Shown here piece by piece: positions 12,241-30,863 of a stretch of 64,000 nucleotides of DNA. The stretch is taken from positions 992,001-1,056,000 of the forward strand of contig OY970172.1 in NCBI GenBank assembly GCA_963707655.1, written 5' to 3'. Position numbers and translations under genes: made by a program. This DNA comes from an uncultured bacterium. GTDB taxonomy: Bacteria > Babelota > Babeliae > Babelales > Vermiphilaceae. The notes under the pieces were generated by a model. The model ran no database searches and was not told the DNA's origin. It worked only from the letters and a program-made list of their open reading frames with translations. Positions within the stretch are counted from its first letter, which is position 1, and each line of letters begins with the position of its first letter.

Positions 12241-12732
12241 TTATTTGATGGTGGTAGCGGGGGTGTTGTCACACTCTATTAAATTTTTTTGCTCTAGCCC
12301 TTCTATATGGAAAATTTTCGTAAAGGTATCTATTTTTGAAGGCGATATTGTTCTATTGATGCTCGATCCACATATCTCACATATACCAACGAGATTTGTT
12401 CGTTTATTGTTATGGTGAATACGGACTTTGTTATCTTTGGTGTACCTTGCCTTCTGGCATTTGCAGCAGAACAATTGGTTTTCAGCGCAAGGTTTTTTTC
12501 TGCCAGCATTTCTTACACTTAGAAAGTCGATTAAATCTTGTCCCCATATCAAGTACGGTAGTTGATCATCTATTTTCTTGAGCCCCGTCTTTAACCAGTC
12601 GCTAATGGTACCTTTATCAACCTTGAGAAGCTCTTTGATCTCTTCTATGGAATAGGAGTTTGCGCTTCTGATGATTCTTGTATTAAATCTTTTCCGAAAC
12701 TTCTTTACGTTTTTCTGCTTTTTCTTGTACAT
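12241..12732 (-). CDS. HTH protein with C-terminal Cys pairs (possible excisionase-like partner)
   Basis: YSIEEIKELLKVDKGTISDW HTH-like segment; CCKC and CEIC. Confidence 0.65.
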   Translation of the reverse strand: MYKKKQKNVKKFRKRFNTRIIRSANSYSIEEIKELLKVDKGTISDWLKTGLKKIDDQLPYLIWGQDLIDFLSVRNAGRKKPCAENQLFCCKCQKARYTKDNKVRIHHNNKRTNLVGICEICGSSINRTISPSKIDTFTKIFHIEGLEQKNLIECDNTPATTIK

Positions 12733-12863
12733 CTTTCATATCCCACTCGAGCAATAAATCAAAAAGATCAATTAATGGCTGGATATCAGATTTGATTTCT
12801 AGCCTATCTCCTTGCTGAGTTATGCTTTGCTTTTTTATGTCCATCGGTACTACTCAACAAAAT

Positions 12864-13136
12864 TTAGAATGCGCTATTAATGATTGCTTCATATTTGCGT
12901 ATGACAACATCTTCAATTGCTGTCGCAATCTCTTTGTTGATAGGATGAAAAATGGGCATACTACTGTTTAATGTTTTTCGAGTTGGGTAGGTCAACCTAT
13001 AACCACCTTGTGGGCGTGTATATATTCCTATGGAAGCAAAATAAAATAAGCTATCGAACGTGAAGCTTGCAAACGCTACAAGGCCGTCCTTTGGCTTGAG
13101 TGGAATTATTTGTATTTCTGATACCTTGTCTTTCAT
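12864..13136 (-). CDS. SpoVG-family nucleic-acid-binding protein
   Basis: GLVAFASFTFD..IGIY..GGYRLTYP..IFHPINKE pattern typical of SpoVG. Confidence 0.7.
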   Translation of the reverse strand: MKDKVSEIQIIPLKPKDGLVAFASFTFDSLFYFASIGIYTRPQGGYRLTYPTRKTLNSSMPIFHPINKEIATAIEDVVIRKYEAIINSAF

Positions 13137-13218
13137 AATCTTTACCTTTTGGGTTAAGGGTTAAGCTTTAACTGAAGACAAGGTAATAAAAAGGGTTCGG
13201 GCCCGGCTGGGCCCAGAA

Positions 13219-14235
13219 TTAACAGAGATATTTTGGATTAATTTGAACAGTATCATCCTTGATAAGAAGAAATTCTGGATGACCCAACTTGGCTACATTC
13301 TTGTTTATGCTACGACAAATCTCATAAATATCCGGACCTTCCTTTGCGTGATCGTTGTTCATAATCTTTTCGCTAATAGTTTCAAATTTTAAGGCTCTTT
13401 TTTTGATAAAGCTGTCGCCAGGAATTAGCATTTTCAAAACGATACGCGAATCACTATTTTTTTTGAAATTCGTTGATCCATCATTAATTTTAAGCTTGCC
13501 ATTATTAGGGTCATAAGAAATTGTGTATTTCACTTTTTCTTGAGTTACAGCTAATTGCCTCTCAAAAAAATCAATCGTATATCTTAAAATACGATTCATA
13601 TGAACTCGCAAATCAGGAATATTTTCTTTCTTTAGTTCTTGCTTGCCTTGACCATAATTGATATAGATGCGTGCTAGCTTATCCCAGCTATACCAAATGC
13701 GAGTTTGTTGAATATCTTCAAGGCGATTTTTTTCGCTATTCCACAAATAGAAACTTGGTGTAAAAATACATTCTTGCACTCTCCCTTCTTCATCTAAAAC
13801 TGCGCTTTTTTTGAGAAGACATTTTGCCTCTTTCGAGTGATTTTCTGCCAATGACCAAACAAAATCTCTTAATATTCTGTATTTAGCTATCATAGGATTA
13901 CTAATTGCCGCCATGTTGCTATCGCGATATAGTTCGAAAGCAAAAACATCATTGAATATAGGGTGGTAGTTTTTGCCATATTTTTTTGTTTGGTAATCCC
14001 TATATTCATAATATGCCAACTCCATTTCATATTCTGCTGCTTCCGTTAGATCTTGTAATAGCTGAGCATTATTTTTTGCTTCCCCGAGTATTTTTGTATT
14101 TATATGCCCCAGGTCGACATTTTTATCGTACTCAGCCATAAAGTCATAGATGAGCAACCCAAATAAGTTAGGATCATCGATCTGATTATTGCAGAGTGAT
14201 TGTAGTTTATTAACATTAGACTGGTTTTGTTGCAT
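13219..14235 (-). CDS. Hypothetical protein, possible C-terminal winged helix
   Basis: 338 aa ORF; C-terminal DIYEICRSINK..INPKY. Confidence 0.6.
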   Translation of the reverse strand: MQQNQSNVNKLQSLCNNQIDDPNLFGLLIYDFMAEYDKNVDLGHINTKILGEAKNNAQLLQDLTEAAEYEMELAYYEYRDYQTKKYGKNYHPIFNDVFAFELYRDSNMAAISNPMIAKYRILRDFVWSLAENHSKEAKCLLKKSAVLDEEGRVQECIFTPSFYLWNSEKNRLEDIQQTRIWYSWDKLARIYINYGQGKQELKKENIPDLRVHMNRILRYTIDFFERQLAVTQEKVKYTISYDPNNGKLKINDGSTNFKKNSDSRIVLKMLIPGDSFIKKRALKFETISEKIMNNDHAKEGPDIYEICRSINKNVAKLGHPEFLLIKDDTVQINPKYLC

Positions 14236-14290
14236 CTTCTTTACCTCTTAAAATACGTTTTTTATATTCTAATCGGTAAAAGTAGATTCT

Positions 14291-14584
14291 CTAAGCAAAA
14301 AGTACCTGTTCTATCGCATTTATGTTAGTCTGTTCGAAGGTAAAAGTTCTAAAATAGTCCGATAGGGCACACCAGCCTTCGCTTATTAGTCGCCAAGGCT
14401 ATGGCGGACAGGCCGGGGGCAAGATAGAGCTCGGCGAAAGCCTGAAGAAGCTCGTGAGAGCGAAGACAGGCAAGCTTCGTCTGGCTGCCGCCAGCAACTT
14501 TTTCACCCATTCTTTGCATCTTCATAAATCCTTGGTATATCTACTAAGACTTTTTTTATAGGAATCTGACCTTTAGGGAGAACT
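14291..14584. repeat. Junction repeat 1: recombinase-tail arm, core GGGCACACCA (14365-14374), structured leader and RBS
   Basis: Homologous to junctions with cores at 17330, 20183, 22680, 25439 and 27919. Confidence 0.9.
14514..14541 (+). promoter_or_regulatory. Putative sigma70-type promoter, repeated before each toxin gene
   Basis: TTGCAT-N16-TATATC followed by GGGAG RBS; identical in all four toxin units. Confidence 0.4.
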
Positions 14585-16489
14585 ATGAAGATTATCATTC
14601 TGATCAGTATCTTACTACAAATAGTGGCTATCCAAGCGGTATATCCCAATCGAGAGTTGACGACAAACTGGGATACCTCAACGCGAAATCGAGGCATATC
14701 ACAAAATAGTCTTGCTAAGATGAACCGTGCTCAATATATAAAAAATATTGCCGGTATCAACAGCCATTCTTCTTTCACTCCCTCTCACATTACATCCGGA
14801 ACACCTGCATACACGATGCTGCATGAGCCGCACAAATGCGCATCGTGGCAGGGGAGTGACTATTGGAATGCAATTGTCCAGGCATTCGGGCTTAAAGCAT
14901 CAATAGACAAGAATTATTATATTCCGTTCGGACTGCGTGAGTATGGCTATACTAGTGATTCACAGATTTTGTATATTCATGACGACAATATAATCCGCAT
15001 TATGCAGCAGGGGAAACTTTATGATTACGACAATTTCTGGTGCTTTATTAGCCAGTTTGATTCGTATGAATCAACACTGTTGCAACTGTTTAACAATGGC
15101 ACGCAGCGCAGCCAGCTTTCTCAAAAAGCGCGGCAGAAAATGCAACAAGAATGCACTCGCATTACTGAAAAACAACTGACAAAAGAGCGGGAGCAACAGC
15201 AGCGGTATCAGGAAGAATCGGTACGAAAACATTTTCAAGGAGAGCTTCCAGTAATTGAAGATTCAGTTGATGAGCAACAAGAATTGCATGATATTGCCCA
15301 TACATATAATTTGCATAACAAAAATCATTATGAAACGCGTCTGGCTGCCCTTGAAGATGTGGTAAGTAATAGCAGATATACCCGTGACGTGTACACTCTC
15401 GATGATGATGTGATAAGGATTCTGTCACAATCAGAATGCGATGCCAAACAATATACGACCAATTATGGCAATCAATTGCAGCAAGTCATTCACCGTGAAT
15501 GCATCGATATTGTCTCGCAAACAGCGCAACTCTCTGTCCGCTCTCCTCTTTATGATTATAAAAATTCATTAGCTAATTTTACCGATTCGGCGCGTTCATA
15601 TAACCAGGAAGGCTCATCTGGCAAAGCGATGCAAATCAATGATTTTTGCTATGCATTGCTCGATTATGGCTCAGCCATTGTTGAGGGCATTGCCTGCGGT
15701 GTCATTGGTGCAGCCAAAGATATGATTAACCATCCAGTTCAAACAGCATTGTGCGTGGTGGCCAGTGAATATGTGTTGGCCTATCAATTACTTAAAGTCA
15801 CCACCAACCTTGCCTCCATCGGTATATGCTATGCCTTTGATAAAGAAGCCGGCGCGCAACAATGGCATGATTATATTGAGCCAATAACGAATGTGATCAG
15901 CGCTATCAACAATAAAGAGGTAACGCTGCGAAACGGCATTAAAGGAGTTGTTGCCGTTGGCACCGGCATATATGCGCAAGGCAAGATGCTGAAAGGTCTA
16001 AACTCTTTTTATAGCACAACAAAAGCAAAGGCTTTTGAGTTTGTCAAAAACAATCCGTTGGTAACTCCGACTGAATATATGTCCACTCCTGAGGGAGTAT
16101 TATTTAAGGCTATACGCAATGCTCAAGAAGGATTGAATGATATTTCAGGAGAGGTTAAATCAGCATTAGATGGTATCAAAAATGACTTGAAGATGCGTTT
16201 CGAACAGCGAAGCTTGCAGCACATGTTTAGTCGGCATGCAAAGGATTTTGGAATATGCAAAGCGTGGAACAAGGCCACAGCCGTCGAGTTTGAAAAAATA
16301 ATTTTTGACCACATAAACACTGTTCACCCGATTAAAGGTACTTATCGTGGTGTACAAGAGGTTTTGCATTATTTTGATAAAAACAGCGGCCTTAATGTTA
16401 TGACGGATAAGGCCGGATCTCTTATTGGCGGATGGAAGTTAAGTGAAGATCAAATTAAATATCTCTTGTCGACTGGAGCGCTAAAATAA
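14585..16489 (+). CDS. Secreted polymorphic toxin 1, colicin D-like C-terminal tip
   Basis: Signal peptide; core shared with three paralogs; tip HAKDFGI..EFEKII.DH..KGTYRG..YFD..GLNV..G.LIGGWKL resembles the colicin D tRNase domain. Confidence 0.82.
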   Translation: MKIIILISILLQIVAIQAVYPNRELTTNWDTSTRNRGISQNSLAKMNRAQYIKNIAGINSHSSFTPSHITSGTPAYTMLHEPHKCASWQGSDYWNAIVQAFGLKASIDKNYYIPFGLREYGYTSDSQILYIHDDNIIRIMQQGKLYDYDNFWCFISQFDSYESTLLQLFNNGTQRSQLSQKARQKMQQECTRITEKQLTKEREQQQRYQEESVRKHFQGELPVIEDSVDEQQELHDIAHTYNLHNKNHYETRLAALEDVVSNSRYTRDVYTLDDDVIRILSQSECDAKQYTTNYGNQLQQVIHRECIDIVSQTAQLSVRSPLYDYKNSLANFTDSARSYNQEGSSGKAMQINDFCYALLDYGSAIVEGIACGVIGAAKDMINHPVQTALCVVASEYVLAYQLLKVTTNLASIGICYAFDKEAGAQQWHDYIEPITNVISAINNKEVTLRNGIKGVVAVGTGIYAQGKMLKGLNSFYSTTKAKAFEFVKNNPLVTPTEYMSTPEGVLFKAIRNAQEGLNDISGEVKSALDGIKNDLKMRFEQRSLQHMFSRHAKDFGICKAWNKATAVEFEKIIFDHINTVHPIKGTYRGVQEVLHYFDKNSGLNVMTDKAGSLIGGWKLSEDQIKYLLSTGALK

Positions 16490-16490
16490 C

Positions 16491-16961
16491 ATGCCTGAAT
16501 ACTTTGACATCTCACTTATCATCGGAAAAAGTGAACTACAAAAACAGCAATTACAGGATTTTTTATTACACACCTTTAATCTACACGAAGAAGAAAACGA
16601 TAGCCTTCGCAATGAAATTTCAGCATTCAAAAATGTTATTCTTACCATCTATGAATCAGAGGAAATTAATTTTATAGAGTTTGGTATAAGTATTCCGAAA
16701 TGTGTTTTTCATAAAAAATCATTTGATAGAGAGTTTAATCCTATTGATTTATTTATTACGCGTTGTCTGAAAGAATGCAAATTCATTCGATTCGCTTTAT
16801 GTAGTTATGAAATGAATGCATACTATATCGGCAAATTACAAAGAATTGAAGATTTCACCCCGCTTTTTTTAGCGCATTTTCCTATCACTTACTCAAAAGA
16901 CCTGCACAATGAGTCATTTTCAAAAATAATTAATACAACGGCGCAGGACATTTTTGTTTAA
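16491..16961 (+). CDS. Putative immunity protein 1
   Basis: Starts 1 nt after the toxin stop; small; unique to this unit. Confidence 0.7.
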   Translation: MPEYFDISLIIGKSELQKQQLQDFLLHTFNLHEEENDSLRNEISAFKNVILTIYESEEINFIEFGISIPKCVFHKKSFDREFNPIDLFITRCLKECKFIRFALCSYEMNAYYIGKLQRIEDFTPLFLAHFPITYSKDLHNESFSKIINTTAQDIFV

Positions 16962-17002
16962 TGTGTTCAATAAAATGGTTGCTTATGTAGCGAGGTAAGG
17001 CC

Positions 17003-17209
17003 ATGCAAAATAGATTAACGAATGAAGAAGCTTTTAATTCCATGAGGCTTTTTTTGGAAGAATATTACAAACGAACATCATCCGATGATATTGGTTCGCT
17101 GTTGGGGGATTTAATTCTTTTAGCAGACCAAACAACAGCAGATCCAGCCGCTTGGGAAGATTGGATGGACTGCGTTAAAAAAGTTAAAGAGAAAGAATAT
17201 CCATTGTGA
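17003..17209 (+). CDS. Putative orphan immunity protein
   Basis: LT..AF..M..LE.Y.K.TSSD.I..LL......TTAD...W.DW shared with 62784..63161. Confidence 0.7.
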   Translation: MQNRLTNEEAFNSMRLFLEEYYKRTSSDDIGSLLGDLILLADQTTADPAAWEDWMDCVKKVKEKEYPL

Positions 17210-17246
17210 TGGAGGCATTTTTGAAGAGCATCTGTATTTAGTAGCT

Positions 17247-17551
17247 TTAGATACCTATCGCAAAAAGTATTTGCTTAATCTGACTTATGCTCAAGTCTTC
17301 ATAACAAAAGTTGCTGAAATAGTCCGATAGGGCACACCACTCTTCGTTTATTCCGCCGTCGCCAAGGCTATGGCGGACAGGCCGGGGGCAAGATAGAGCT
17401 CGGCGAAAGCCTGAAGAAGCTCGTGAGAGCGAAGACAGGCAAGCTTCGTCTGGCTGCCGCCAGCAACTTTTTTACCCATTCTTTGCATCTTCATAAATCC
17501 TTGGTATATCTACTAAGACTTTTTCCAGGAATCTAACTTTCAGGGAGAACT
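17247..17551. repeat. Junction repeat 2 (core 17330-17339)
   Basis: AAAAGTTGCTGAAATAGTCCGATAGGGCACACCA plus leader nearly identical to junction 1. Confidence 0.92.
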
Positions 17552-19483
17552 ATGAAGATTATTATTTTGATCGGCATTCTACTACAATCAGCAGCTATCC
17601 AAGCCGTGTATCCCACTAGAGAGTTAACAACAAACTGGGATATCTCAACGCGAAGTCGCGGCATATCACAAAATAGTCTTGATCACATGAACCGTCCTCA
17701 ATATGTAAAGGGCATTGCCTGCCTTGACCAGTGTCATGCGAAGCGCGACTCTGCGCGACCATCTTCTATACTTTTCACTAATCCAAAACAATGTGCTTAT
17801 TGGACATCATCTGATTATTATGCCGCTCTAGCCCATGACTATGGCATACCAATTACCATTGAAAACGCAGGGAGCATAGCAGAAGAGTTGCGTTATTACC
17901 ATTGCCCTCATGATCAAAGAAATTTTTTGTATATCCCCGAATACGTCATTACCAATATTATGCATCAAGAGAAGCTGTACGCTCATAAAAATTTCATCGA
18001 TTTTATAAAAAAATTTGATTGGTATGAGGATGAGTTATTGGCTCTGCATGATAAAGTTATGCACAGACACGATTCTTGGAAGTCATTTTTTAAAAAGAAG
18101 TTTTCAGATCAGGTGATAGCTGCACTAGTATCTGAGCGCAATCGAATTGTTAACGCAAGAAGAGACAAAAGAAAGCGCGAAGTTGAAGCCACCGTCATAA
18201 AAAATAATTTTCAAAGCGAGTTACCTGGCATCCAAGGGATGGTCAATGAGCAACAAGAGTTGCATGAGATTGCCAATACATATAACTTGCATAACAAAAA
18301 TCATTATGAAACTCGTCTGGCCGCGCTTGAAGATGTTTTGAACAGCAGAAGCTGCACGCAGCAATCGTACAGCTTCAACAATGATGCATTGACCTTGCTT
18401 TCACAAGTAGGGTGCAGTGCTGAACAGTATAAAACCAATTGCGGCAATCAACTGCAGCAGGTTATTCACCGTGAATGCATCGATATTGTCTCACAGGCAG
18501 CGCAACTTTCTGTGCATTCTCCCCTCTATGATTATAAAAATTCATTAGTTAATTTTACCGATTCGGCTCGTTCATATAATCAGGAAGGCTCGTCTGGCAG
18601 AGCGATGCAAATCAATGATTTTTGCTATGCATTACTCGATTATGGCTCGGCCATTGTTGAGGGCATTGCCTGTGGTGTCATTGGCGCAGCCAAAGATATG
18701 ATTAACCATCCAGTTCAGACAGCGCTGTGCGTAGTGGCCGGTGAATATGTGTTGGCCTATCAATTGCTTAAAGTCACCACTAACCTTGCCTCCATCGGAA
18801 TATCCTATGCCTTTGATAAAGAAGCCGGCGCGCAACAATGGCATGATTACATTGAGCCAATAACGAGCGTGATCAGCGCCATTACCAACAAAGAAATAAC
18901 CCTGCGTGACGGGATTAAAGGAGCAGTCGCTCTTGGCACCGGTATGTATGCGCAAGGCAAGATGCTTAAAGGACTGAACTCTTTTTACAATACAACAAAA
19001 ACAAAAGCTCTTGAATTCGTTAAAAATAATCCTTTGGCAACTCCTGCCGAATACATGACTACTTCTGACGGGGTATTGTTTAAAGCAACACAAGAGTCTT
19101 TATGCAATAAGTCTCAAAAGAACATCGAAAGTCATTTTAAGCAAGAAGTAGGTCAAACACAGACGTCGCTAGGTAGGCCTGCTTATTCTCTTCCTGCCAA
19201 GGTTGAACAAGCAATAGCATATGCCACAAATGATACAAAATTAAAACATTTTTTTGTTAACGAAATGCACGGATTTGAGCCATTGCTTGAGAAAATGAAT
19301 GGTGATCAAAAAAAACTTATCAGAGAAATCGTAAATGCCTTAACCAGAAACGCAATATTACCTACAGCTGGAGAATTCAAAAATATTCCGGTCAGCCTTG
19401 ATGGACAAGTTATACATGTTAGAGGTTTTGTGCATAATGACATTATTAAAATTGGTACTATGTTCATTCCAGAAGGAAAATAA
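17552..19483 (+). CDS. Secreted polymorphic toxin 2
   Basis: Signal peptide, conserved core, distinct tip (KHFF..MHG..VHVRGFVHNDIIKIGTMFIP-type). Confidence 0.8.
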   Translation: MKIIILIGILLQSAAIQAVYPTRELTTNWDISTRSRGISQNSLDHMNRPQYVKGIACLDQCHAKRDSARPSSILFTNPKQCAYWTSSDYYAALAHDYGIPITIENAGSIAEELRYYHCPHDQRNFLYIPEYVITNIMHQEKLYAHKNFIDFIKKFDWYEDELLALHDKVMHRHDSWKSFFKKKFSDQVIAALVSERNRIVNARRDKRKREVEATVIKNNFQSELPGIQGMVNEQQELHEIANTYNLHNKNHYETRLAALEDVLNSRSCTQQSYSFNNDALTLLSQVGCSAEQYKTNCGNQLQQVIHRECIDIVSQAAQLSVHSPLYDYKNSLVNFTDSARSYNQEGSSGRAMQINDFCYALLDYGSAIVEGIACGVIGAAKDMINHPVQTALCVVAGEYVLAYQLLKVTTNLASIGISYAFDKEAGAQQWHDYIEPITSVISAITNKEITLRDGIKGAVALGTGMYAQGKMLKGLNSFYNTTKTKALEFVKNNPLATPAEYMTTSDGVLFKATQESLCNKSQKNIESHFKQEVGQTQTSLGRPAYSLPAKVEQAIAYATNDTKLKHFFVNEMHGFEPLLEKMNGDQKKLIREIVNALTRNAILPTAGEFKNIPVSLDGQVIHVRGFVHNDIIKIGTMFIPEGK

Positions 19484-19485
19484 AT

Positions 19486-20040
19486 ATGCATTGGAAACAG
19501 AAGCTTGGAACGCTGGAGAAACAGAAAAAATGGGATGCTGCCATAGAATTAATGATCCATGTTATTGATGAGAATTCTGGGTCTATAGATCCGTATATTT
19601 ATATGAATTATTTACTTATGAATCTTTTGGTAGAAGAAGATTATGACAATGATAAATATAGCTATTACAAATTATTAATAAAAAAATATTTTGACGAATC
19701 TTATGCTAAATTTTCTGATAATGCTGAGTATCTTTTTTTCACTGCTTCCACCGCTCTAATGTCTGAGTGGCATTTTGATATTGATGTAAAAGATTATGAT
19801 GCAATGTTTAAAAAAGCTCTAGTCTTAGAACCCGATAATCTTCTTTATCAAGACTATTATTACACTATGCTAGATAAAACTATCCCAAGCAATAAAAAGG
19901 CCGCAGTAGAATATGCAAAAAAAATACTGGAACCAAAGTCTTCTATTCAAATAATATTGAATTCCAAAGGCGCTATAGGAGAACGCCTTTTGGGATTAAT
20001 GACAAATTGGAGCTTAAGGATTCTTGGCATGAAGCCTTGA
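19486..20040 (+). CDS. Putative immunity protein 2 (helical/TPR-like)
   Basis: 2 nt after the toxin stop; paralog of 24795..25355. Confidence 0.72.
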   Translation: MHWKQKLGTLEKQKKWDAAIELMIHVIDENSGSIDPYIYMNYLLMNLLVEEDYDNDKYSYYKLLIKKYFDESYAKFSDNAEYLFFTASTALMSEWHFDIDVKDYDAMFKKALVLEPDNLLYQDYYYTMLDKTIPSNKKAAVEYAKKILEPKSSIQIILNSKGAIGERLLGLMTNWSLRILGMKP

Positions 20041-20102
20041 GGCTCTTCCAAGCACACCTTAACAAAGTATATAGGGATAAAATATCCTTGATGGCTTTTT
20101 TG

Positions 20103-20404
20103 CTAATGACCAATATCACCCAAAGACCATATTGCCAAAACTAACGAATTGTCCACAGAGAAGTTGCTGAAATAGACCGATAGGGCACACCACTCTTCGT
20201 TTATTCCGCCGTCGCCAAGGCTATGGCGGACAGGCTGGGGGCAAGATAGAGCTCGGCGAAAGCCTGAAGAAGCTCGTGAGAGCGAAGACAGGCAAGCTTC
20301 GTCTGGCTGCCGCCAGCAACTTTTTTACCCATTCTTTGCATCTTCATAAATCCTTGGTATATCTACTAAGACTTTTTCCAGGAATCTAACTTTCAGGGAG
20401 AACT
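20103..20404. repeat. Junction repeat 3 (core 20183-20192)
   Basis: AAGTTGCTGAAATAGACCGATAGGGCACACCA plus leader. Confidence 0.92.
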
Positions 20405-22303
20405 ATGAAGATTATTATTTTGATCGGCATTCTACTACAATCAGCAGCTATCCAAGCCGTGTATCCCACTAGAGAGTTAACAACAAACTGGGATATCTCA
20501 ACGCGAAGTCGCGGCATATCACAAAATAGTCTTGATCACATGAACCGTCCTTAATATGTAAAGGGCATTGCCTGCCTTGACCAGTGTCATGCGAAGCGCG
20601 ACTCTGCGCGACCATCTTCTATACTTTTCACTAATCCAAAACAATGTGCTTATTGGACATCATCTGATTATTATGCCGCTCTAGCCCATGACTATGGCAT
20701 ACCAATTACCATTGAAAACGCAGGGAGCATAGCAGAAGAGTTGCGTTATTACCATTGCCCTCATGATCAAAGAAATTTTTTGTATATCCCCGAATACGTC
20801 ATTACCAATATTATGCATCAAGAGAAGCTGTACGCTCATAAAAATTTCATCGATTTTATAAAAAAATTTGATTGGTATGAGGATGAGTTATTGGCTCTGC
20901 ATGATAAAGTTATGCACAGACACGATTCTTGGAAGTCATTTTTTAAAAAGAAGTTTTCAGATCAGGTGATAGCTGCACTAGTATCTGAGCGCAATCGAAT
21001 TGTTAACGCAAGAAGAGACAAAAGAAAGCGCGAAGTTGAAGCCACCGTCATAAAAAATAATTTTCAAAGCGAGTTACTTGGCATCCAAGGGATGGTCAAT
21101 GAGCAACAAGAGTTGCATGAGATTGCCAATACATATAACTTGCATAACAAAAATCATTATGAAACTCGTCTGGCCGCGCTTGAAGATGTTTTGAACAGCA
21201 GAAGCTGCACGCAGCAATCGTACAGCTTCAACAATGATGCATTGACCTTGCTTTCACAAGTAGGGTGCAGTGCTGAACAGTATAAAACTAATTATGGTAA
21301 TCAATTGCAGCAAGTCATTCACCGTGAATGCATCGATATTGTCTCACAGGCAGCGCAACTTTCTGTGCATTCTCCCCTCTATGATTATAAAAATTCATTA
21401 GTTAATTTTACCGATTCGGCTCGTTCATATAATCAGGAAGGCTCGTCTGGCAGAGCGATGCAAATCAATGATTTTTGCTATGCATTACTCGATTATGGCT
21501 CGGCCATTGTTGAGGGCATTGCCTGTGGTGTCATTGGCGCAGCCAAAGATATGATTAACCATCCAGTTCAGACAGCGCTGTGCGTAGTGGCCGGTGAATA
21601 TGTGTTGGCCTATCAATTGCTTAAAGTCACGACTAACCTTGCCTCCATCGGAATATCCTATGCCTTTGATAAAGAAGCTGGCGAGCAGCAATGGCATGAA
21701 TATATTGAGCCGATAACGAGCGTGATCAGCGCTATCAAAAACAAAGAGCTGACTCTGCGAGATGGCATTAAAGGAGCCGTCACCCTTGGCACCGGTATGT
21801 ATGCGCAAGGCAAGATGCTTAAAGGTCTGAATTCTTTTTACAACACGACAAAAGCAAAAGCTCTTGAATTCGCTAAAAATAATCCGTTGGTCACTCCTTT
21901 TGAGTATATGACCACTCAAGAGGGAGTGTTGTTTAAGGTTACCGATAAAACAAGTAAAACTGGTCCTTGGCAACAAAATGATATCGAATGGATTCCTTAT
22001 GGCCACAAGCACATTGCTAGTAAAAAAATGAGTTGGAAAGATATTCTTCAATTCACAAAAAATGGCCCTGCCAAATATAAACCAGAAATTAATGTTGAAC
22101 TCTTAGAAACAATGGCATGGCAAAAGGGAACAATGATTCCTGGTAAGAACTGGAAAATTTATCAATGTGAAGACATAATTGGTGCAAACAATGGCATTGA
22201 AACTAACTTTATGATAGTAAAAAATAGTATGGCTACAATTCATGGACATCCAATAACCCCGCAAGAATTTAAACAATACATGAATATGATAGGAAAATTA
22301 TGA
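20405..22303 (+). pseudogene. Polymorphic toxin 3 with nonsense codon at codon 50
   Basis: ATG at 20405 as in toxin 2; CAA>TAA at 20552-20554; frame continues as ORF 20741..22303 with a distinct tip ending IHGHPIT. Confidence 0.8.
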
Positions 22304-22614
22304 AACTTAATATAAACCTGAATAATGGGATTATTGTCTATGATGAATTTAATATTGATCCCAATCTCCCGCTAAAAGATCAAATTATGGAATTGCAAGA
22401 AGATCTTCTACAAATACAATATGATAATAATGTAGTTATTGACGTTGGATGGTATCCTGAACTTGATCCATCCGGAAGCTTTATTATTAATATAATAAAA
22501 GATTCTGATTGGTCTCATCCTATATATAAAAAAACAGTTAAATTAAAAAATATTGTTGCTGAACTACAAAAAGCAATTGATTTGGCTCTCACATTAAATG
22601 GTCGATCTATCTAA
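22300..22614 (+). CDS. Putative immunity protein 3
   Basis: ATGA overlap with the toxin stop; EDLLQIQY..IDVGWYP motif; acidic, 104 aa. Confidence 0.72.
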   Translation: MKLNINLNNGIIVYDEFNIDPNLPLKDQIMELQEDLLQIQYDNNVVIDVGWYPELDPSGSFIINIIKDSDWSHPIYKKTVKLKNIVAELQKAIDLALTLNGRSI

Positions 22615-22864
22615 ACACAATTTCTTGACCTGATTGAGAACATCAGCTTCAAAAGAAAAGTTGCTGAAATAGACCGATAGGGCACACCAGCCTTCGCTTA
22701 TTCCGTTGTCGCCAAGGCTATGGCTGACATGGCCGGGCAAGAGAAGACTCGGCAAGCTTCGTCTGGCTGCCGCCAGCAACTTTTTTACCCATTCTTTGCA
22801 TCTTCATAAATCCTTGGTATATCTACTAAGACTTTTTCCAGGAATCTAACTTTCAGGGAGAACT
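22594..22864. repeat. Junction repeat 4 (core 22680-22689, shorter leader)
   Basis: AAAAGTTGCTGAAATAGACCGATAGGGCACACCA plus leader lacking an internal segment present in junctions 1-3. Confidence 0.92.
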
Positions 22865-24788
22865 ATGAAGATTATTATTTTGATCGGCATTCTACTACAA
22901 TCAGCAGCTATCCCAAGCCGTGTATCCCACTAGAGAGTTAACAACAAACTGGGATATCTCAACGCGAAATCGCGGCATATCACAAAATAGTCTTGATCAC
23001 ATGAACCGTCCTCAATATGTAAAGGGCATTGCCTGCCTTGACCAGTGTCATGCGAAGCGCGACTCTGCGCGACCATCTTCTATACTTTTCACTAATCCAA
23101 AACAATGTGCTTATTGGACATCATCTGATTATTATGCCGCTCTAGCCCATGACTATGGCATACCAATTACCATTGAAAACGCAGGGAGCATAGCAGAAGA
23201 GTTGCGTTATTACCATTGCCCTCATGATCAAAGAAATTTTTTGTATATCCCCGAATACGTCATTACCAATATTATGCATCAAGAGAAGCTGTACGCTCAT
23301 AAAAATTTCATCGATTTTATAAAAAAATTTGATTGGTATGAGGATGAGTTATTGGCTCTGCATGATAAAGTTATGCACAGACACGATTCTTGGAAGTCAT
23401 TTTTTAAAAAGAAGTTTTCAGATCAGGTGATAGCTGCACTAGTATCTGAGCGCAATCGAATTGTTAACGCAAGAAGAGACAAAAGAAAGCGCGAAGTTGA
23501 AGCCACCGTCATAAAAAATAATTTTCAAAGCGAGTTACCTGGCATCCAAGGGATGGTCAATGAGCAACAAGAGTTGCATGAGATTGCCAATACATATAAC
23601 TTGCATAACAAAAATCATTATGAAACTCGTCTGGCCGCGCTTGAAGATGTTTTGAACAGCAGAAGCTACACGCAGCAATCGTACAGCTTCAACAATGATG
23701 CATTGACCTTGCTTTCACAAGTAGGGTGCAGTGCTGAACAGTATAAAACTAATTATGGTAATCAATTGCAGCAAGTCATTCACCGTGAATGCATCGATAT
23801 TGTCTCACAGGCAGCGCAACTTTCTGTGCATTCTCCCCTCTATGATTATAAAAATTCATTAGTTAATTTCACCGATTCGGCGCGTTCATATAATCAAGAA
23901 GGCCTGTCTGGCAGAGCGATACAAATCAATGACTTTTGCTACGCATTACTCGATTATGGCTCAGCCATTGTTGAGGGCATTGCCTGTGGTGTCATTGGCG
24001 CAGCCAAAGATATGCTTAACCATCCAGTTCAAACAGCGCTGTGCGTAGTGGCCGGTGAATATGTGTTGGCCTATCAATTGCTTAAAGTCACCACCAACCT
24101 TGTATCTATTGGCATAAGCTATGCTTTTGATAAAGAAGCTGGGGCGCAACAGTGGCATGAATATATTGAACCAATCACCAATGTTATAAGCGCCATTACC
24201 AACAAAAAATTGTCCCTGCGTGACGGCTTTAAAGGAGCCGCCGCCCTTGGCACCGGTATGTATGCGCAAGGCAAGATGCTTAAACGACTGAACTCTTTTT
24301 ACAATACAACAAAAACAAAAGCTCTTGAATTCGTTAAAAATAATCCTTTGGCAACTCCTGCCGAATACATGACTACTTCTGACGGGGTATTGTTTAAAGC
24401 AACACAAGAGTCTTTATGCAATAAGTCTCAAAAAGACATCGAAAGTTATTTTAAACAAGAAGTACCGCAAGGCCAGTCAAACTTGCCTACTTATTCTCTT
24501 CCATCTAAGATTGAACAAGCCGTAAAATATGCTACAACCAATGAAAAACTTGAATATTTTTTTAAAAAAGAAATGCATGGGCTTGAGCCATTGCTAAAAA
24601 CAATGGATAACAACAAAGAAAAAGTTGTTCGTGAAGTTATCGGGTTGTTGTCAATTAACAATGATATGCCTAGATTTGGTAAGTTTGATGGAATACCTAT
24701 AAATATAAATGGATATATTGTTCATGCACGGGGATTTGTTCATGATGATGTTATTAAACTTGGCACTATCTTTATTCCGCAAGGGTAA
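22865..24788 (+). pseudogene. Polymorphic toxin 4 with +1 frameshift in the signal-peptide region
   Basis: GCTATCCCAAGCC (22912-22914 CCC) versus GCTATCCAAGCC in toxins 2 and 3; remainder is ORF 22920..24788; tip paralogous to toxin 2. Confidence 0.75.
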
Positions 24789-24794
24789 ATAACT

Positions 24795-25355
24795 ATGTCT
24801 TGGAAAGAGAAGCTTAGAACATTAGAGCGACAAAAAGAATGGGACGCTGCTATAGAACTAATGATCCATACCATTAATCACAACCCAGATGACATGGATG
24901 CATATATATATATGAATTATTTACTCATGAATCTTTTGGTAGAGGAAGATCATACTAGCATTGATGAAAACAAGTTTGCTTATTATGAAACGCTGACCAA
25001 GCATTACTTCGATGAGTCTTATGCTAAATTTTCAAATAATGCAGAATATCTTTTCTTCACTGCAACAACAGCTGTCATGTCTGAGTGGTTTTTTGGCATT
25101 GATGTGCCGGACTATGAAGCTATGTTTCAAAAAGCTATGCTTCTCGAGCCCAACAACCTCCTTTATCAAAGAATTTACTATATGGATCTTGATAAAACTA
25201 TCCCTGGTAATAAAAAGGCTGCAATGGAATATGCTAAAAAAATTTTAGATAAAGATTCTCCTATTCAAAAAACATTGAAGTCTAAAGGCGCTGTTGGCGC
25301 GTATTTGCTAGAATTGATGACAAATTCAAGTTTGGAGATGCTCGGCATGAAATAA
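24795..25355 (+). CDS. Putative immunity protein 4
   Basis: Follows toxin 4; paralog of 19486..20040. Confidence 0.72.
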   Translation: MSWKEKLRTLERQKEWDAAIELMIHTINHNPDDMDAYIYMNYLLMNLLVEEDHTSIDENKFAYYETLTKHYFDESYAKFSNNAEYLFFTATTAVMSEWFFGIDVPDYEAMFQKAMLLEPNNLLYQRIYYMDLDKTIPGNKKAAMEYAKKILDKDSPIQKTLKSKGAVGAYLLELMTNSSLEMLGMK

Positions 25356-25470
25356 CTAATAACTTGTAGCAAAAAGTATCTGCTGATCCTGATTCATGCT
25401 AATCTGGTCAAGTAAAAAGTTGCTGAAATAATCCGATAGGGTACACCAGCTTTCGCTAAAGCTTCAGCTG
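25356..25470. repeat. Junction repeat 5 (core variant GGGTACACCA 25439-25448)
   Basis: AAAAAGTTGCTGAAATAATCCGATAGGGTACACCAGCTTTCGCT. Confidence 0.85.
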
Positions 25471-25682
25471 GCAGACAGGTCGTCTGTACCATTGTAGAAA
25501 AACTTTAATAGTAAATAGCGAAGACGGTCCGAAGAAGCCGCGGGTATAGACGGACTTTTTCCAAAAAAGTAAATCTCTAGCAATTTTTGTCCGTAACTTA
25601 TTAGTCTTACATTGATCAGCAAGGTCACAAAACATCGGCATAATGAACCCTCACATTGTACTTGGATGAGGCATTGTGATCG

Positions 25683-26189
25683 ATGAAAAACTGGCAACAA
25701 CACTCTATACTTGAGGTCTTATGTATGTTGATACGCATTAATGCTTTTACCCAAAACCATAGTAATACAATACCTAAAAAATATACCTGTGATGGTGAAG
25801 GAATTTCCCCCGAAATTAGTTGGGATGAAGTACCAGAAAAAACAGAAAGCTTTGCGCTTATTATGGAAGGTCTTGATGTTCCCAATAGAAGCAATGCTTT
25901 GGTGTTATGGGTTATCTACAATATTCCTGGCGCTCTACGAACCATTGCCTCAAACTCTATTCCCGAACAAGCTAAAGTTGGCATTAATGATTTGGGGAAA
26001 AAGCGATATAGCGCCCCATGCCCAAAACCGGGACCGCATCCTCAAAAATATCAAATTACCTTATATGCTCTCGATACAACATTGATATTCTTGCCCGATG
26101 AGACAACAAAGGAAGATTTAGTGAAAGCCATGAAAAAGCATGTTTTGGCAACAGCAGAAAATATTGGTTTTTGTGAAAGACATGGATAA
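25683..26189 (+). CDS. YbhB/YbcL (PEBP/Raf kinase inhibitor-like) protein
   Basis: IPKKYTCDGEGISP, FALIM.GLD.P, WVIYNIP, APCP, YALD; start uncertain. Confidence 0.88.
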   Translation: MKNWQQHSILEVLCMLIRINAFTQNHSNTIPKKYTCDGEGISPEISWDEVPEKTESFALIMEGLDVPNRSNALVLWVIYNIPGALRTIASNSIPEQAKVGINDLGKKRYSAPCPKPGPHPQKYQITLYALDTTLIFLPDETTKEDLVKAMKKHVLATAENIGFCERHG

Positions 26190-26226
26190 ATTGCATCTAA
26201 GTTGAGAGTGCTAAGAAGGCTGTTGT

Positions 26227-26784
26227 TTACCTATTGGTATCCACTGAGTACCCAAAAGCTCTTAATATATCTTTGGTCTGAGTTTCTGGTGTAACATTAT
26301 CAATAATGTATACGATAATTCCTTGCTCATTAATCAAAAAAGATTTGCGCAACGCATAGAGGTTGCCCATTGCATGTTGATCAGTGCCATACATATGCGC
26401 GACTTCATGCTTCATATCTGATAATAAGATGAATGGGAGTCTTTCTTGTTCTTTAAATTTTTTGTGTGATTCAGGAGAATCATAGCTGACCCCAATGACT
26501 ACGATGTCATGTTGCTTGAACTGATCAAAAGAATTGCGCAACTCGCATGCCTCTTTCGTACAGCCCGGCGTTCCATCTTTTGGATAAAAATAGAGAACTA
26601 TTTTTCTGCCCTTGAATGAGGCAAGTGAGCGTGAAGCTCCTGTTTCATCAGGTAGGGTGAATAAAGGAGCCGCATCACCAACTTTAACTTTTTCAGCCGG
26701 TGTACGTTTGTATTTCCCCAACATAAAAATACAGGCTATTGCAATCAAGCCCAAGATAATGAGCGACATTAAAAGAGTATTCAT
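26227..26784 (-). CDS. bcp: Peroxiredoxin BCP/PrxQ with N-terminal anchor
   Basis: LYFYPKDGTPGCTKEAC motif. Confidence 0.92.
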   Translation of the reverse strand: MNTLLMSLIILGLIAIACIFMLGKYKRTPAEKVKVGDAAPLFTLPDETGASRSLASFKGRKIVLYFYPKDGTPGCTKEACELRNSFDQFKQHDIVVIGVSYDSPESHKKFKEQERLPFILLSDMKHEVAHMYGTDQHAMGNLYALRKSFLINEQGIIVYIIDNVTPETQTKDILRAFGYSVDTNR

Positions 26785-27104
26785 ACTATTTTCCTCTGCA
26801 TCAGCTCAGCTATTTTTCAATATTTTCTTTAACTCATCTTACCAATGGTTTCTGTTTTTAAAAATGGTTCTCAAAGCAACTTTAATGGAAAGTTATAATT
26901 AAAATCAACAACATTCATAAGTATTTCATGGTTCGCAGGAACAATCATGAGAATCCGCAGAAATGATCACATATCTCTAGCAAGTAGTATTCGCCTGATG
27001 TCGAATAAATTAATATTTTTCTGTACAGAAGTTGGGTGAAATAAGCCGACAAATGCATAATAATCTGCGCAGAAATATCGAGTGACTTTTTTTGATTTCT
27101 GTGT

Positions 27105-27130
27105 GGGAACTATGAAGATTATTATCCTGA
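27105..27130 (+). pseudogene. Relic of a toxin gene start
   Basis: GGGAACTATGAAGATTATTATCCTGA versus GGGAGAACTATGAAGATTATTATTTTGA at toxin starts (MKIIIL), followed by an early stop. Confidence 0.55.
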
Positions 27131-27252
27131 ATTGAAGATTCTCTATATTGGCTTTTAAATGGCTGACAATTTTAGTGCGTTCATGGAAACTCTTTATTTT
27201 TCACTTCAAAAATATGTATAAGATATAAAATAATATTTATAGAGGAGTTTAC

Positions 27253-27807
27253 ATGAAAAAACAATTAGAAGGACTCAAAGTCGCGATCCTTTGCGATACC
27301 GGTTTTGAACAAAATGAAATGACAGAACCTAGAAAAGCATTAGATCAAGCCGGTGCTGAAACAGTGCTTGTTTCTCCTGTATATGGGAAAATAAGAGGCT
27401 GGATTGATGACCAATGGAGAGATGAATTTCCTGTCGACCTTGATTTGAATAATGCAAATCCAGATGATTATGATGCTCTACATCTTCCGGGTGGGGTAAT
27501 CAATCCTGATAAACTACGCAGATTTGAATCGGCAATTGCTTTTATTAAAGCATTTGTTGACGCTAAAAAACCAATCGCAGCCATTTGCCACGGGCCTTGG
27601 ACCCTCATTAATGCACATGGCGTGAAAGGAAAAACCCTCACTTCATGGCCCTCGATTAAAATCGATCTCGTCAATGCCGGTGCAAACTGGGTCGATAAGC
27701 CAGTGGTTAGAGATGGTCTTTTGGTAACGAGCAGATGGCCCGCAGATATAGCTGCATATAACCCCGTGATGATAGAAATGTTCGCGGAAGTACTAAAGAA
27801 AAAATAA
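27253..27807 (+). CDS. PfpI/DJ-1 family (YhbO-like) protein
   Basis: GFEQNEMTEP, LPGGVINPDKLR, AAICHGPW, VTSR. Confidence 0.93.
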   Translation: MKKQLEGLKVAILCDTGFEQNEMTEPRKALDQAGAETVLVSPVYGKIRGWIDDQWRDEFPVDLDLNNANPDDYDALHLPGGVINPDKLRRFESAIAFIKAFVDAKKPIAAICHGPWTLINAHGVKGKTLTSWPSIKIDLVNAGANWVDKPVVRDGLLVTSRWPADIAAYNPVMIEMFAEVLKKK

Positions 27808-27820
27808 GAAAGATCATCAC

Positions 27821-27945
27821 TAAAAGTATCGGCCCAACCTGACTCATGTTGACCTGATCACAATCACAACAAAAGTTGCTCAAGTAGTGCGCACATAAGT
27901 GCCCCGATAATCCAATAGGGGCACACCAGTTCTCGCTAAGGCTTG
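27821..27945. repeat. Degenerate junction repeat 6 (core 27919-27928)
   Basis: AAAAGTTGCT at 27871; ATAATCCAATAGGGGCACACCAG..CGCTAAGGCT. Confidence 0.75.
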
Positions 27946-29198: not shown

Positions 29199-30863
29199 AT
29201 GATTTCCAAAAAAATATTCTGTGTAATTACTATTATGTGGTTCTTCCTTCAGGCAAGTGACCATGACAATGGGTCCGTTGAACATAAGAGTGCTAATATA
29301 GATCAATATCTAAATGAAATAAGTTCTGAACAAGAAGAAAAAACCCAAATATTAGAACATATATTAAACAATTCAGCTGGGACTTACATAGATCTAGGAA
29401 CCGGCGGGGATTCGATTTCTTATCTAATTAATAATATTCCCGATCACTTACCAGTCACGCTCATTGGATCTGACATTGATAGCACTATACTCAATGCTAT
29501 TCCACAAAGACATCAAGCAATAGTCCCTTATATGCGAAGTTGTGATACTAGTAAATTACAATGCAAATTGGTTCGAATGGATGCAACCAATATGTATCCA
29601 ATCAGCAATAACTCCATAGATGGCGTCTCAGCTTCAGCCTTAACACACGAGATTTTTTCTTATGTCCCTACTAAAAGTTCATTAGATCAATTTTTCATCG
29701 AATTGATAAGGGTTTTAAAAGAAGGCGGCGTTTTTGTTTATCGAGATCCAAAATGGGATAGTAATCCCGAACAAGATTGTTTGGTTATTTTAAAGGATAA
29801 ATTGGCGAAATTTTTTGCTGTTCTATTTATTCCACGTTTTCTTGACAGAAAATTTACGGAACGCACAGATTACAAAAACCAATGTATAAAGCCAACCCTT
29901 TATAACAATTCTCACTTTAGAATCAACTACTTTAACAAAGGACTTAATAAAAGTAAAAAATCAAAGATAGAGGATTTTATTAATGTTCCTTTAACAGACA
30001 TAGATTTCAGTAGAAATATTTCTATTGAAGCCCCTAGAGGATTTATTAGTGAAATTCAAAGACATTATATCCTTTTCCTAAAGAATGTTTTTTTAACGGA
30101 ATTGATTGATAAAAACTTCTTTGATCGAGAAATTATAAACATTGATAATTTGCCTCTGGAAGAAGGAGCTATATTTAGAAACTTCTTGCAAAGTCATCAC
30201 ATAGATGACAGTTTAATTTCTACCTCCGCAGATCTTTTTCAGAAGATACTTCAAGAGAAAAAGCGTTTCTATAATTTTTTAGAAAATGGGTTATGGTGTA
30301 AAATCACCGACATGGAAAAAGCGCATAAATTTTGCTCCCATTTGTATGCCAATGGCATTAATAAAAATGTCATATGTATTCAGGATAATCATCTATGGGC
30401 AGACGCAAAAATAGCAACTTTACTGTTTCAAGATTGTCAGAAAGGACTTTTTGAGTTTCTCGATCAGACAACATCTTCAATACCGGTGAATGCTCTAGAA
30501 TGGATGAAACGAGAAGGCGAAGAATACTATTTTTATAAGACAACCGATGAATTAATTACGTATATAGGTCAGCTCACCAAGTTCCATTTAAAAGGAACCG
30601 ACAAAGATGGGTATTTGTTGTGTCCCGTGAGCCCTAATCATGTCAAGACAATTTCTCGAAATTTATATAAAAACATAGTCCGCGCACATACTGAAGTAAT
30701 GGATATAGACGGTAACCAGGAAGATATAATTTTCGATAAAAATATAATTCATTTTAAGCTAATGAAAACATCCGATGCATTAGCAGTATATAAAGAGTTG
30801 TGTAAAAAAAATGATCATATTTTTGTTCAATTAAATCAATGGATTCAAAATGGCTTACGATGA
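29199..30863 (+). CDS. Class I SAM-dependent methyltransferase domain protein
   Basis: IDLGTGG, IGSDID, RMDA, LTHEIFSY, RVLKEGG. Confidence 0.8.
   Translation: MISKKIFCVITIMWFFLQASDHDNGSVEHKSANIDQYLNEISSEQEEKTQILEHILNNSAGTYIDLGTGGDSISYLINNIPDHLPVTLIGSDIDSTILNAIPQRHQAIVPYMRSCDTSKLQCKLVRMDATNMYPISNNSIDGVSASALTHEIFSYVPTKSSLDQFFIELIRVLKEGGVFVYRDPKWDSNPEQDCLVILKDKLAKFFAVLFIPRFLDRKFTERTDYKNQCIKPTLYNNSHFRINYFNKGLNKSKKSKIEDFINVPLTDIDFSRNISIEAPRGFISEIQRHYILFLKNVFLTELIDKNFFDREIINIDNLPLEEGAIFRNFLQSHHIDDSLISTSADLFQKILQEKKRFYNFLENGLWCKITDMEKAHKFCSHLYANGINKNVICIQDNHLWADAKIATLLFQDCQKGLFEFLDQTTSSIPVNALEWMKREGEEYYFYKTTDELITYIGQLTKFHLKGTDKDGYLLCPVSPNHVKTISRNLYKNIVRAHTEVMDIDGNQEDIIFDKNIIHFKLMKTSDALAVYKELCKKNDHIFVQLNQWIQNGLR

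Follow-up and report, generated by a model that had tools for sequence, protein, structure and literature searches.

Why should a row of junctions behind one tRNA gene each encode, in one and the same reading frame, what looks like the end of a recombinase? The question is raised by a 64,000-nucleotide (nt) stretch of an uncultured, protist-dwelling Vermiphilaceae bacterium (GenBank assembly GCA_963707655.1, contig OY970172.1, positions 992,001 to 1,056,000), which is called here the window. A gene for a large serine recombinase (LSR) reads into the end of a tRNA-Arg(TCT) gene from the opposite strand. To the right of the tRNA gene lie a 10.3-kb element that carries this LSR and an array of toxin and other cassettes, with a copy of the tRNA end at each boundary. 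The evidence given below points to an attachment site (attP) inside the LSR gene itself, and the tails at the junctions are probably the footprints of successive insertions at this tRNA gene. The insertion site is composed of the following features.

4006 to 4082, plus strand: intact tRNA-Arg(TCT), the sole tRNA of the window, identified by ARAGORN, by Rfam (tRNA, 74.2 bits) and by its sequence.
4073 to 4082, left attachment site (attL) side: the core, which is the last 10 nt of the tRNA, GGGCACACCA, and is common to every junction.
4068 to 5537, minus strand: LSR of 489 amino acids (aa) with the C-terminus KTGK-WCAR and then a stop, from Pfam and translation.

The last five codons of the LSR gene are the antisense of the 3' end of tRNA-Arg(TCT), and the TGG codon of the W residue complements the CCA of the tRNA. 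By its domains and modelled fold, the window recombinase is an LSR with catalytic, Recombinase and zinc-ribbon domains and a coiled-coil insertion. Pfam assigned Resolvase (PF00239, 2.5e-27, residues 4-154), Recombinase (PF07508, 5.5e-17) and Zn_ribbon_recom (PF13408, 8.2e-09), and the residues R9, S11 and S12 were invariant in 57 LSR homologues; P0001 reads YARVSSKDQ. The AlphaFold2 model of the 512-aa homologue P0056 has a mean predicted local distance difference test score (pLDDT) of 83 and shows long helices at 338-385 and 391-419. In a Foldseek comparison it matched full-length serine-integrase, Bxb1, PhiC31 and LI integrase chains with E values from 1e-18 to 5e-12. A search of the genome with this LSR as query returned only two LSR genes. 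The second, a paralogue of 32% identity at genome positions 250758-252188, stops 13 nt short of an opposite-strand tRNA-Asp, showing the same geometry in another branch of the family.

The junction frames were obtained by translating the minus strand from each core with TGG as the first codon. They are in phase with the LSR, whose KTGK-W-C-A-R end reads over the same 10-mer, TGGTGTGCCC on the minus strand. In the 1.09-Mb genome this exact 10-mer occurs at tRNA-Arg(TCT) and at five sites to its right and nowhere else, and a chance occurrence of the junction core was rejected on this ground. Six cores on the same strand lie within 24 kb of tRNA-Arg(TCT), and their frames are as follows. The bit scores are those of a tail profile described below.

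14291 to 14374, minus strand: J1, the own right attachment site (attR) of the LSR element; WCALSDYFRTFTFEQTNINAIEQVLFA and a stop, 27 codons, YFRTF type; core 14365-14374; 44.5 bits.
17247 to 17339, minus strand: J2, ending in QILFAIGI and a stop, 30 codons, YFSNF type; core 17330-17339; 49.0 bits.
20103 to 20192, minus strand: J3, ending in SLGDIGH and a stop, 29 codons, distal half diverged; core 20183-20192; 32.1 bits.
22594 to 22689, minus strand: J4, ending in LDRSTI and a stop, 31 codons; core 22680-22689; 28.0 bits.
25356 to 25448, minus strand: J5, starting with WCTLSDYF and ending in QILFATSY and a stop, 30 codons; core 25439-25448 with one change (TGGTGTACCC); 27.6 bits.
27707 to 27928, minus strand: J6, degenerate, starting with WCAPIGLSGHLCAHYLSNF and running for 73 codons without the canonical stop; core 27919-27928 intact.

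The first-pass annotation of this DNA had reported these six tails. All of its strings and start and end coordinates were reproduced exactly, J1-J5 being open for 27-31 codons and J6 being degenerate. A nucleotide profile of the site run with nhmmer found eight junctions genome-wide and none further. The remaining two, J7 and J8, lie outside the window behind tRNA-Arg(TCG), at genome positions 315561 and 318567, and flank another toxin cassette. The P arm of J6 is broken by a net insertion of 21 nt and scored 20 bits, against 58-69 for the other junctions. The region upstream of the cores was also considered as a decayed LSR 3' end and was rejected, since it gave no alignment with one.

Every junction is an attR-type site, consisting of a P arm, the 10-nt core of the tRNA 3' end and a tRNA trailer with a terminator-like hairpin. 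When J2 and J3 are anchored at the core, they are identical rightwards from about position -33 and fall to random-level identity leftwards. Between J2 and J5, 16-18 of 20 positions are kept across the P arm and 9 of 20 just past the core. Judged from such alignments, the P arm of about 33 nt and the core form an island of conservation. Core position -6 matches the tRNA of its own locus in all eight junctions (A at TCT, G at TCG). J4 and J8 are sisters, with 88% identity over 77 nt between J4 and the end of the second-locus cassette, and they also carry the base of their own locus, as predicted by site-specific insertion at two tRNAs.

On the right of every core stands a member of the trailer family that follows about twenty tRNAs in this genome, mostly as shorter relatives. 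The copies in the array are placed as follows.

14375 to 14511, plus strand: tRNA-trailer copy after J1, with a terminator-like hairpin at 14481-14494.
17341 to 17480, 20194 to 20333 and 22691 to 22793: trailer copies of the same family after J2, J3 and J4, respectively (nhmmer, 91-160 bits).

The GC-rich trailers of about 140 nt after J1-J4 closely resemble the trailer of tRNA-Tyr (genome 110950-111086), with 85-90% identity by eye, and the trailer after J5 resembles the one that follows the single clean attR of the related genome G024. A GC-rich trailer precedes every toxin gene. It shows hairpins, including one with a GAAA loop, and a terminator scan found a terminator-like stem at its end. 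Its fold is marginally better than that of shuffled sequences (z -1.93). Rfam at E<=1 over 3500-29500 returned the tRNA only, and the trailer matches no Rfam family.

To learn what the tails are, the C-termini of LSR homologues were compared. Among 70 database homologues most ends are tRNA-antisense, for example WCAR, WCARQDSNLRPTD, WWS and WLPGQDSN. Four homologues of 512-515 aa have other ends: P0011 (515 aa) ends in WCALSDYFRTFSFENMQLLEIRQILLI, and P0013, P0020 and P0056 (512 aa each) end in WHSLADYFRTFSFEGLQLSAIKQLLIA, WCALSVYFGNFSFQDVNLFGIKQLLFA and WCALSDYFSNFLYENINFFALKQLLYA, respectively. These intact ends follow the pattern W(C/H)(A/S)L(S/A)(D/V)YF(R/G/S)(T/N)F...(I/L)(K/R)Q(L/I)L(F/I/Y/L)(A/I). 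The window LSR has 485 codons before its W residue, and with the 27 codons of J1 the total comes to 512 aa, as in the intact homologues. J1 is also the sole tail that combines the canonical length with the LFA end. Up to 40 kb beside the orthologous LSR were examined for far-end tails in nine related genomes, and a core repeat with an in-frame tail was found at the far end of the element in six of them (G029, G024, G003, G027, G050 and, at tRNA-Glu, G019).

A profile hidden Markov model was built from 13 tails of other genomes only and run on 42,411 six-frame peptides of this genome. J2, J1, J3, J7, J8, J4 and J5 were, in this order, the seven best peptides with 49.0-27.6 bits; the next peptide scored 16.4 bits, and J6 fell outside the 25 best. 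The foreign tails are 26-28 codons long in 10 of 13 cases. The motif L-x-D-(Y/D/E)-(F/L/I)-R-(T/N)-(F/Y) is kept in relatives of about 45% identity that target other tRNAs, for example as WLPLSDDIRNYF and LPLLDELRNF, which points to constraint not just on the DNA but on the peptide too. In the P0056 model the tail forms two short helices (pLDDT 74-80). Alanine is the terminal residue in 14 of 33 distinct ends that are not adjacent to a tRNA, compared with 4 of 96 tRNA-read ends and 6.7% of the long frames of the genome. These counts come from an automatic rule that set 65 loci aside, and the free-tail set still holds some misread frames; the excess is a lead only towards an ssrA-like degron role for the tail.

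These comparisons show the tails to be homologous to genuine LSR C-termini and not chance open reading frames (ORFs). Since they correspond to the C-termini of intact homologues and to the attR ends of relatives, the LSR gene contains attP, and on integration tRNA-antisense codons take the place of the tail. The intact C-termini, the foreign-tail profile and the attR of the six relatives also give good support to the claim that the cassettes took their right ends from attP arms of related elements. A further support is the type of the inner tails, which is that of another LSR clade.

The layout is not peculiar to this genome. Among the 12 best LSR loci of related genomes, 11 read into a tRNA (Arg, Ala, Asn or Glu), and the twelfth, L018, is a broken copy. 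A tRNA stands at the LSR stop in 62 of 80 genome loci, which belong to relatives of 42-70% identity from many phyla, and in 43 of 80 metagenome loci. Viral contigs hold both forms, the tRNA-cut copies near contig ends and copies with long tails in mid-contig. In G001, a genome of the same genus, tRNA-Arg(TCT) is followed by a plain trailer until the contig ends 425 nt on. It represents an unoccupied site and gives no information on cassettes.

The likely history is that an LSR with attP in its own gene inserted the 10.3-kb element at the tip of tRNA-Arg(TCT), and that the array beyond it grew by accretion. In the free form the gene would comprise 485 codons, then W-C-A over the 10-nt core identical to the tRNA, and a tail of roughly 24 residues, 512 aa in total. 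The attP would thus lie about 27 codons ahead of the natural stop. In the integrated form the gene reads through the core into the antisense of the tRNA and ends in WCAR, and J1, the attR at the other extremity of the element, holds the original tail as its P arm. Cassettes without a recombinase, with core and trailer at their left end, would have been inserted successively at the tRNA by LSRs of a sister clade. The core and trailer of each cassette would rebuild the tRNA and its terminator and so keep the site usable, the older units would be displaced outward, and the present LSR element would have come last. J2-J6 would then be attR-type footprints of earlier cassette insertions, and the inner tails would be relics of the 3' ends of other LSR genes. 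The crossover position, the order of insertion, mobilisation in trans and any function of the tail are parts of this account that we infer.

J1 is of the YFRTF type, and J2-J5, J7 and J8 are of the YFSNF type. In a tree of 18 hand-chosen LSRs, made up of those whose tails are known and a few more, the resident LSR groups with the enzymes that have YFRTF tails (support 98/95), and those with xNF tails form another clade (90/90). A sister lineage of elements is accordingly the most likely source of the inner tails. The second locus has the order intact tRNA-Arg(TCG), trailer, cassette, J7, trailer, cassette and J8, and holds no LSR. It supports accretion, as this is the state expected without, or after losing, a recombinase-bearing unit. 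A GIY-YIG endonuclease gene (genome 315721-316086; L117:4721-5086) is inserted there between J7 and the trailer/leader of the second-locus toxin.

The units of the array carry the following genes.

14585 to 16489, plus strand: toxin 1 of cassette 1, 634 aa, with a C-terminal Colicin_D domain; presumed immunity gene at 16491-16961.
17552 to 19483, plus strand: toxin 2 of cassette 2, 643 aa, intact; presumed immunity gene at 19486-20040.
20405 to 22303, plus strand: toxin 3 of cassette 3, with a premature stop at codon 50; presumed immunity gene at 22300-22614.
22865 to 24788, plus strand: toxin 4 of cassette 4, with a one-base frameshift near codon 16; presumed immunity gene at 24795-25355.
25449 to 27918: cassette 5, non-toxin, with genes assigned by Pfam to the PEBP family (25683-26189, plus strand), AhpC/peroxiredoxin (26227-26784, minus strand) and DJ-1/PfpI (27253-27807, plus strand).

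In each of units 1-4 a gene some 630 codons long, which begins in a signal-like manner and combines a conserved 5' part with a variable 3' part, is followed by a small downstream ORF. The 5' parts share 84-97% DNA identity over about 0.8-1.7 kb and the 3' parts are divergent; cassettes 4 and 2 are 87% identical across about 2.6 kb. By their composition the toxin units fit polymorphic toxin-immunity cassettes, in which a shared N-terminal region is joined to swapped toxin domains and a small ORF stands next. The small ORFs are presumed to be immunity genes from their position only. The Colicin_D domain of toxin 1 was found by Pfam (PF11429, 5.7e-22) and by matches to colicin D chains in PDB at about 1e-6. 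An Atlas look-up of toxin 2 gave weak leads below 0.9 to polymorphic-toxin families, and the second-locus toxin has Ntox17 at its C-terminal end. The colicin D domain of E. coli cuts the anticodon loops of tRNA-Arg; the presence of a toxin of this type in an array at a tRNA-Arg gene is probably a coincidence. A simple scan for sigma-70-like promoters on the plus strand found none ahead of toxin 1, so own promoters of the cassettes are not claimed.

No recombinase domain was found by Pfam in the ORFs of 14375-27928. The cassettes of relatives, between their first and second junctions, likewise hold unrelated small cargo without a recombinase, MepB and Cass2 in G024 and PhnA in G029. The DJ-1/PfpI protein of cassette 5 shares 91-93% identity with copies in two other genera, where the LSRs reach only 64-66%, and the protein of a NUDIX gene at 30850-31356 is 85% identical to copies in other genera, again with LSRs at about 65%. 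In G025 the DJ-1/PfpI and NUDIX genes also lie past toxin homologues, beside an LSR at tRNA-Ala. This similarity across genera suggests, at the level of protein sequence, a recent horizontal spread of these cassettes.

The LSR element occupies 4083 to 14364, a body of 10.3 kb, or 4073-14374 with its cores. In addition to the LSR it carries the following genes, assigned by Pfam except the last.

5801 to 6664, plus strand: PD-(D/E)XK nuclease.
6700 to 11160, plus strand: helicase with HA repeats.
11146 to 12228, minus strand: tyrosine-recombinase-like protein.
12241 to 12732, minus strand: helix-turn-helix (HTH) protein.
12864 to 13136, minus strand: SpoVG.
13219 to 14235, minus strand: protein of unknown function, 338 aa.

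The LSR, tyrosine-recombinase-like, HTH and SpoVG genes are common to the element of G029, and SpoVG is also found in G003, G024, G027 and G050. The helicase, of 1486 aa with twelve helicase-associated (HA) repeats, and the PD-(D/E)XK nuclease are cargo of the LSR element and are missing from the compact version in G029.

Several points weigh against accretion as set out above. Standard serine integrases recombine attP with attB only. Re-insertion at an occupied tRNA would therefore need either a promiscuous enzyme or a cassette whose trailer-like left end keeps the site attB-like, and the origin of a unit flanked by a trailer to the left and a P arm to the right has to be supposed as well. 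Two of the nine related genomes, G007 and G025 (at tRNA-Ala), showed no attR tail within 40 kb, and G017 was not clear-cut. Tail type is linked to clade on the basis of 9 labelled LSRs among the 18 chosen, and relatives share labels. Along the array the tail scores peak at the two junctions closest to the tRNA and reach their minimum at the farthest one, yet this age gradient is not strictly monotonic (J2 exceeds J1), and the junctions of one array are non-independent samples. Public reads were also consulted; five low-share holders were found, all as Logan contigs, and the contigs of four runs were aligned to 3901-23900, a range that ends before J5 and J6. No joint of a circle or of an empty site (attP/attB) was seen in them, but these short, sparse contigs carry no weight either way. 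One contig of 180 nt covers the integrated tRNA/LSR joint.

A different possibility is that the system is live, J1-J5 all being working attR sites of the resident LSR, so that the choice of junction sets both the cargo (0-4 toxin cassettes) and the tail of the LSR, and the tails are maintained. This was in essence the excision proposed by the first-pass annotation, and its geometry stands. If the tRNA core recombined with J1 to J5, circles of 10.3, 13.3, 16.1, 18.6 and 21.4 kb, respectively, would result; the number of toxin cassettes on them would be 0-4 and the length of their LSR 512-516 aa. At J2-J5, J7 and J8 the P arm and core hardly vary, while both flanks diverge. The seven tails of J1-J5, J7 and J8 are open, in phase and free of indels over 27 codons, and the other five frames contain 1-4 stops in the first 90 nt at every junction, one sense frame of J8 excepted. 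Under neutral decay from the consensus all seven would stay open with a probability of about 0.008, a figure that is overstated because it assumes independence though J4 and J8 are sisters. Two precedents lend the idea some plausibility. A changed integrase tail can alter site use in phage Mx8, according to a review (PMC6070905), and McMurdie et al. put forward the same idea for DsiB in the text available of PMC3146451.

A codon test was applied to the frames, whose persistence despite DNA divergence had been pointed out in the first-pass annotation. Over the full 27 codons the ratio of nonsynonymous to synonymous differences (pN/pS) is 0.66, compared with 1.02 and 1.07 in shifted frames. It is 0.28 in codons 1-11, which coincide with the P arm. 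In codons 12-27 it is 0.78, no better than the 0.73 of one control frame (1.23 in the other), so that clear purifying selection is not seen in this distal part, where saturation (pS 0.64-0.79) leaves the test uninformative. J1 and the primary attR of the relatives still have the canonical stop after 27-28 codons, but all six inner tails (J2-J5, J7 and J8) have lost it, and these moreover are of the type of the other LSR clade. Of the toxins, 1 and 2 are intact whereas 3 and 4 are broken. G024, G029 and G003 have degenerate secondary junctions, and J6 is degenerate too. A live system of this kind is thus a possibility to be held tentatively. On balance the inner tails are likelier to be ageing relics than working alternatives; with their near-consensus P arms they may still be competent for recombination, but they appear to be drifting.

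A bolder version of the same idea would make the locus a serine-recombinase counterpart of the integron. Cassettes with hybrid sites would be captured and released at tRNA-Arg, the junction would set the cargo and the C-terminus of the LSR, and the integrase gene, editing itself, would report the state of the element. Only the J1 tail has the usual hydrophobic-Ala terminus, a possible ssrA-like degron, and the other junctions would give a differently regulated enzyme. The array resembles an integron in its one-sided stack of small cassettes, with unrelated cargo and a recombination site at the end of each, and a cassette of the G024 relative encodes the integron-associated protein Cass2. In place of the IntI tyrosine recombinase with attI and attC there is, however, an adjacent serine recombinase, and the sites are tRNA-derived and of attR type, built of P arm, tRNA core and trailer. 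The toxin cassettes of the window also follow a terminator-like hairpin and not a common promoter. This reading is doubtful.

It is improbable that the array arose by tandem duplication, in which unequal crossing-over in the toxin 5' regions multiplied attR J1 together with its trailer and toxin, and the inner junctions were carried along as passengers. A block of about 1.7 kb, from trailer through leader to the toxin N-terminus, is indeed 95-97% identical among cassettes 2, 3 and 4. One soil-metagenome contig also joins toxin 1 (15310) to toxin 2 (18287) at homologous positions, skipping 2976 nt, and is either a natural variant shorter by one cassette or an assembly chimera. Yet the identity goes no further than the outer limit of the P arm, and the distal DNA of J2, J3 and J4 is at random level while each encodes an LSR-type tail. 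The tail type of J1 differs from that of J2-J5, cassette 5 and the cassettes of relatives carry unrelated genes between junctions of the same kind, and the sister tails J4 and J8 stand behind different tRNAs with locus-matched cores.

That the junction frames were never translated, being DNA-binding arms of attachment sites held open by DNA-level constraint and chance, is very improbable: the overlap of codons 1-11 with the P arm of about 33 nt means that their low pN/pS could be DNA constraint, and the distal codons are nearly neutral within this genome, but intact ORFs of 512-515 aa occur in independent metagenomes, the tail motif is kept in distant relatives with other tRNA targets, and the uniform length of the foreign tails, the frequency of terminal alanine and the two modelled helices stand against it as well.

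With accretion at the tRNA tip retained as the likely history, the locus can be set beside known systems. The nearest are the ssrA islands of Dehalococcoides, where the ORF of the serine recombinase DsiB always overlaps the core of the attachment site at the attL edge (McMurdie et al. 2011, PMC3146451, as far as its accessible text goes). According to the same part of that paper, tandem islands stand there behind the tDNA, parted by direct repeats of its 3' end, and many islands without an integration module are read as accreted cis-mobilisable elements (CIMEs), the CIME and accretion concepts being cited within it. It was also proposed there that DsiB is perhaps fully functional only on a circle or downstream of an island that supplies the 3' gene fragment. 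The window array shares with DsiB a serine recombinase that overlaps the attachment site and tandem units without a recombinase. DsiB differs in its target, the tmRNA with a 20-bp repeat in the T-loop region, where the window LSR takes the last 10 nt of a tRNA, and in working with a second small recombinase, DsiA, of which none is seen in the window system. A conserved tail is not shown in the accessible part of PMC3146451, whereas in the window family the tail is intact in homologues and is found at attR in other genera.

An attP within the integrase ORF, with a new 3' end on integration, is known from Mx8 IntP/IntX and SSV. The Islander work lists the Mx8 and SSV integrases as extending across attP (PMC4383910), and in Mx8 the change of the IntP end is reported, in the part of PMC6070905 that is accessible, to alter site use rather than to inactivate the enzyme. 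Both are tyrosine recombinases for which no array of spare tails is described. In the window family, as for an ORF that spans attP, WCAR is read off the tRNA and the free-form end is conserved in P0011, P0013, P0020 and P0056 and at attR in six of the nine relatives. In mycobacteriophage BPs attP lies in a coding region, which on integration loses a C-terminal stretch with an ssrA-like degradation tag at its end, and the integrase also has a C-terminal proteolysis signal (PMC4557955, accessible text). BPs splits its repressor gene and uses a tyrosine-recombinase integrase; the window element splits its LSR gene.

ICESt1 and its CIME are similar in having same-orientation att repeats at one target and recombinase-less units beside a recombinase-bearing one, but ICESt1 uses a tyrosine recombinase and no junction supplies a recombinase end. 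Composite staphylococcal cassette chromosome (SCC) islands, moved by CcrAB or CcrC, are alike in these repeats and units, and in both systems alternative pairs of sites could free single or composite circles. Their target is rlmH and not a tRNA, and their junctions supply no alternative end to a recombinase ORF. As in these accretion arrays, several same-orientation cores stand behind one target in the window, and the units have no recombinase of their own.

According to the Islander survey of 2014 (PMC4383910), no serine recombinase was known to use tRNA genes as targets. In the openly available main-text literature no description was found of an LSR family that targets tRNA genes and has a tail extending across attP; the nearest case is PMC3146451. 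The family described here is widespread among many phyla, targets the tips of tRNA genes and, when it integrates, rewrites its own C-terminus. For inserting large DNA, serine integrases are the principal tools, and a separate factor is usually held responsible for their directionality. A tail that controlled activity or stability would amount to a built-in directionality switch. The arrays show how small-genome, host-dependent Babeliales gather toxin-immunity and stress genes at a tRNA without an integron, and the spare tails of the window array would be datable footprints of past insertions at one tRNA gene.

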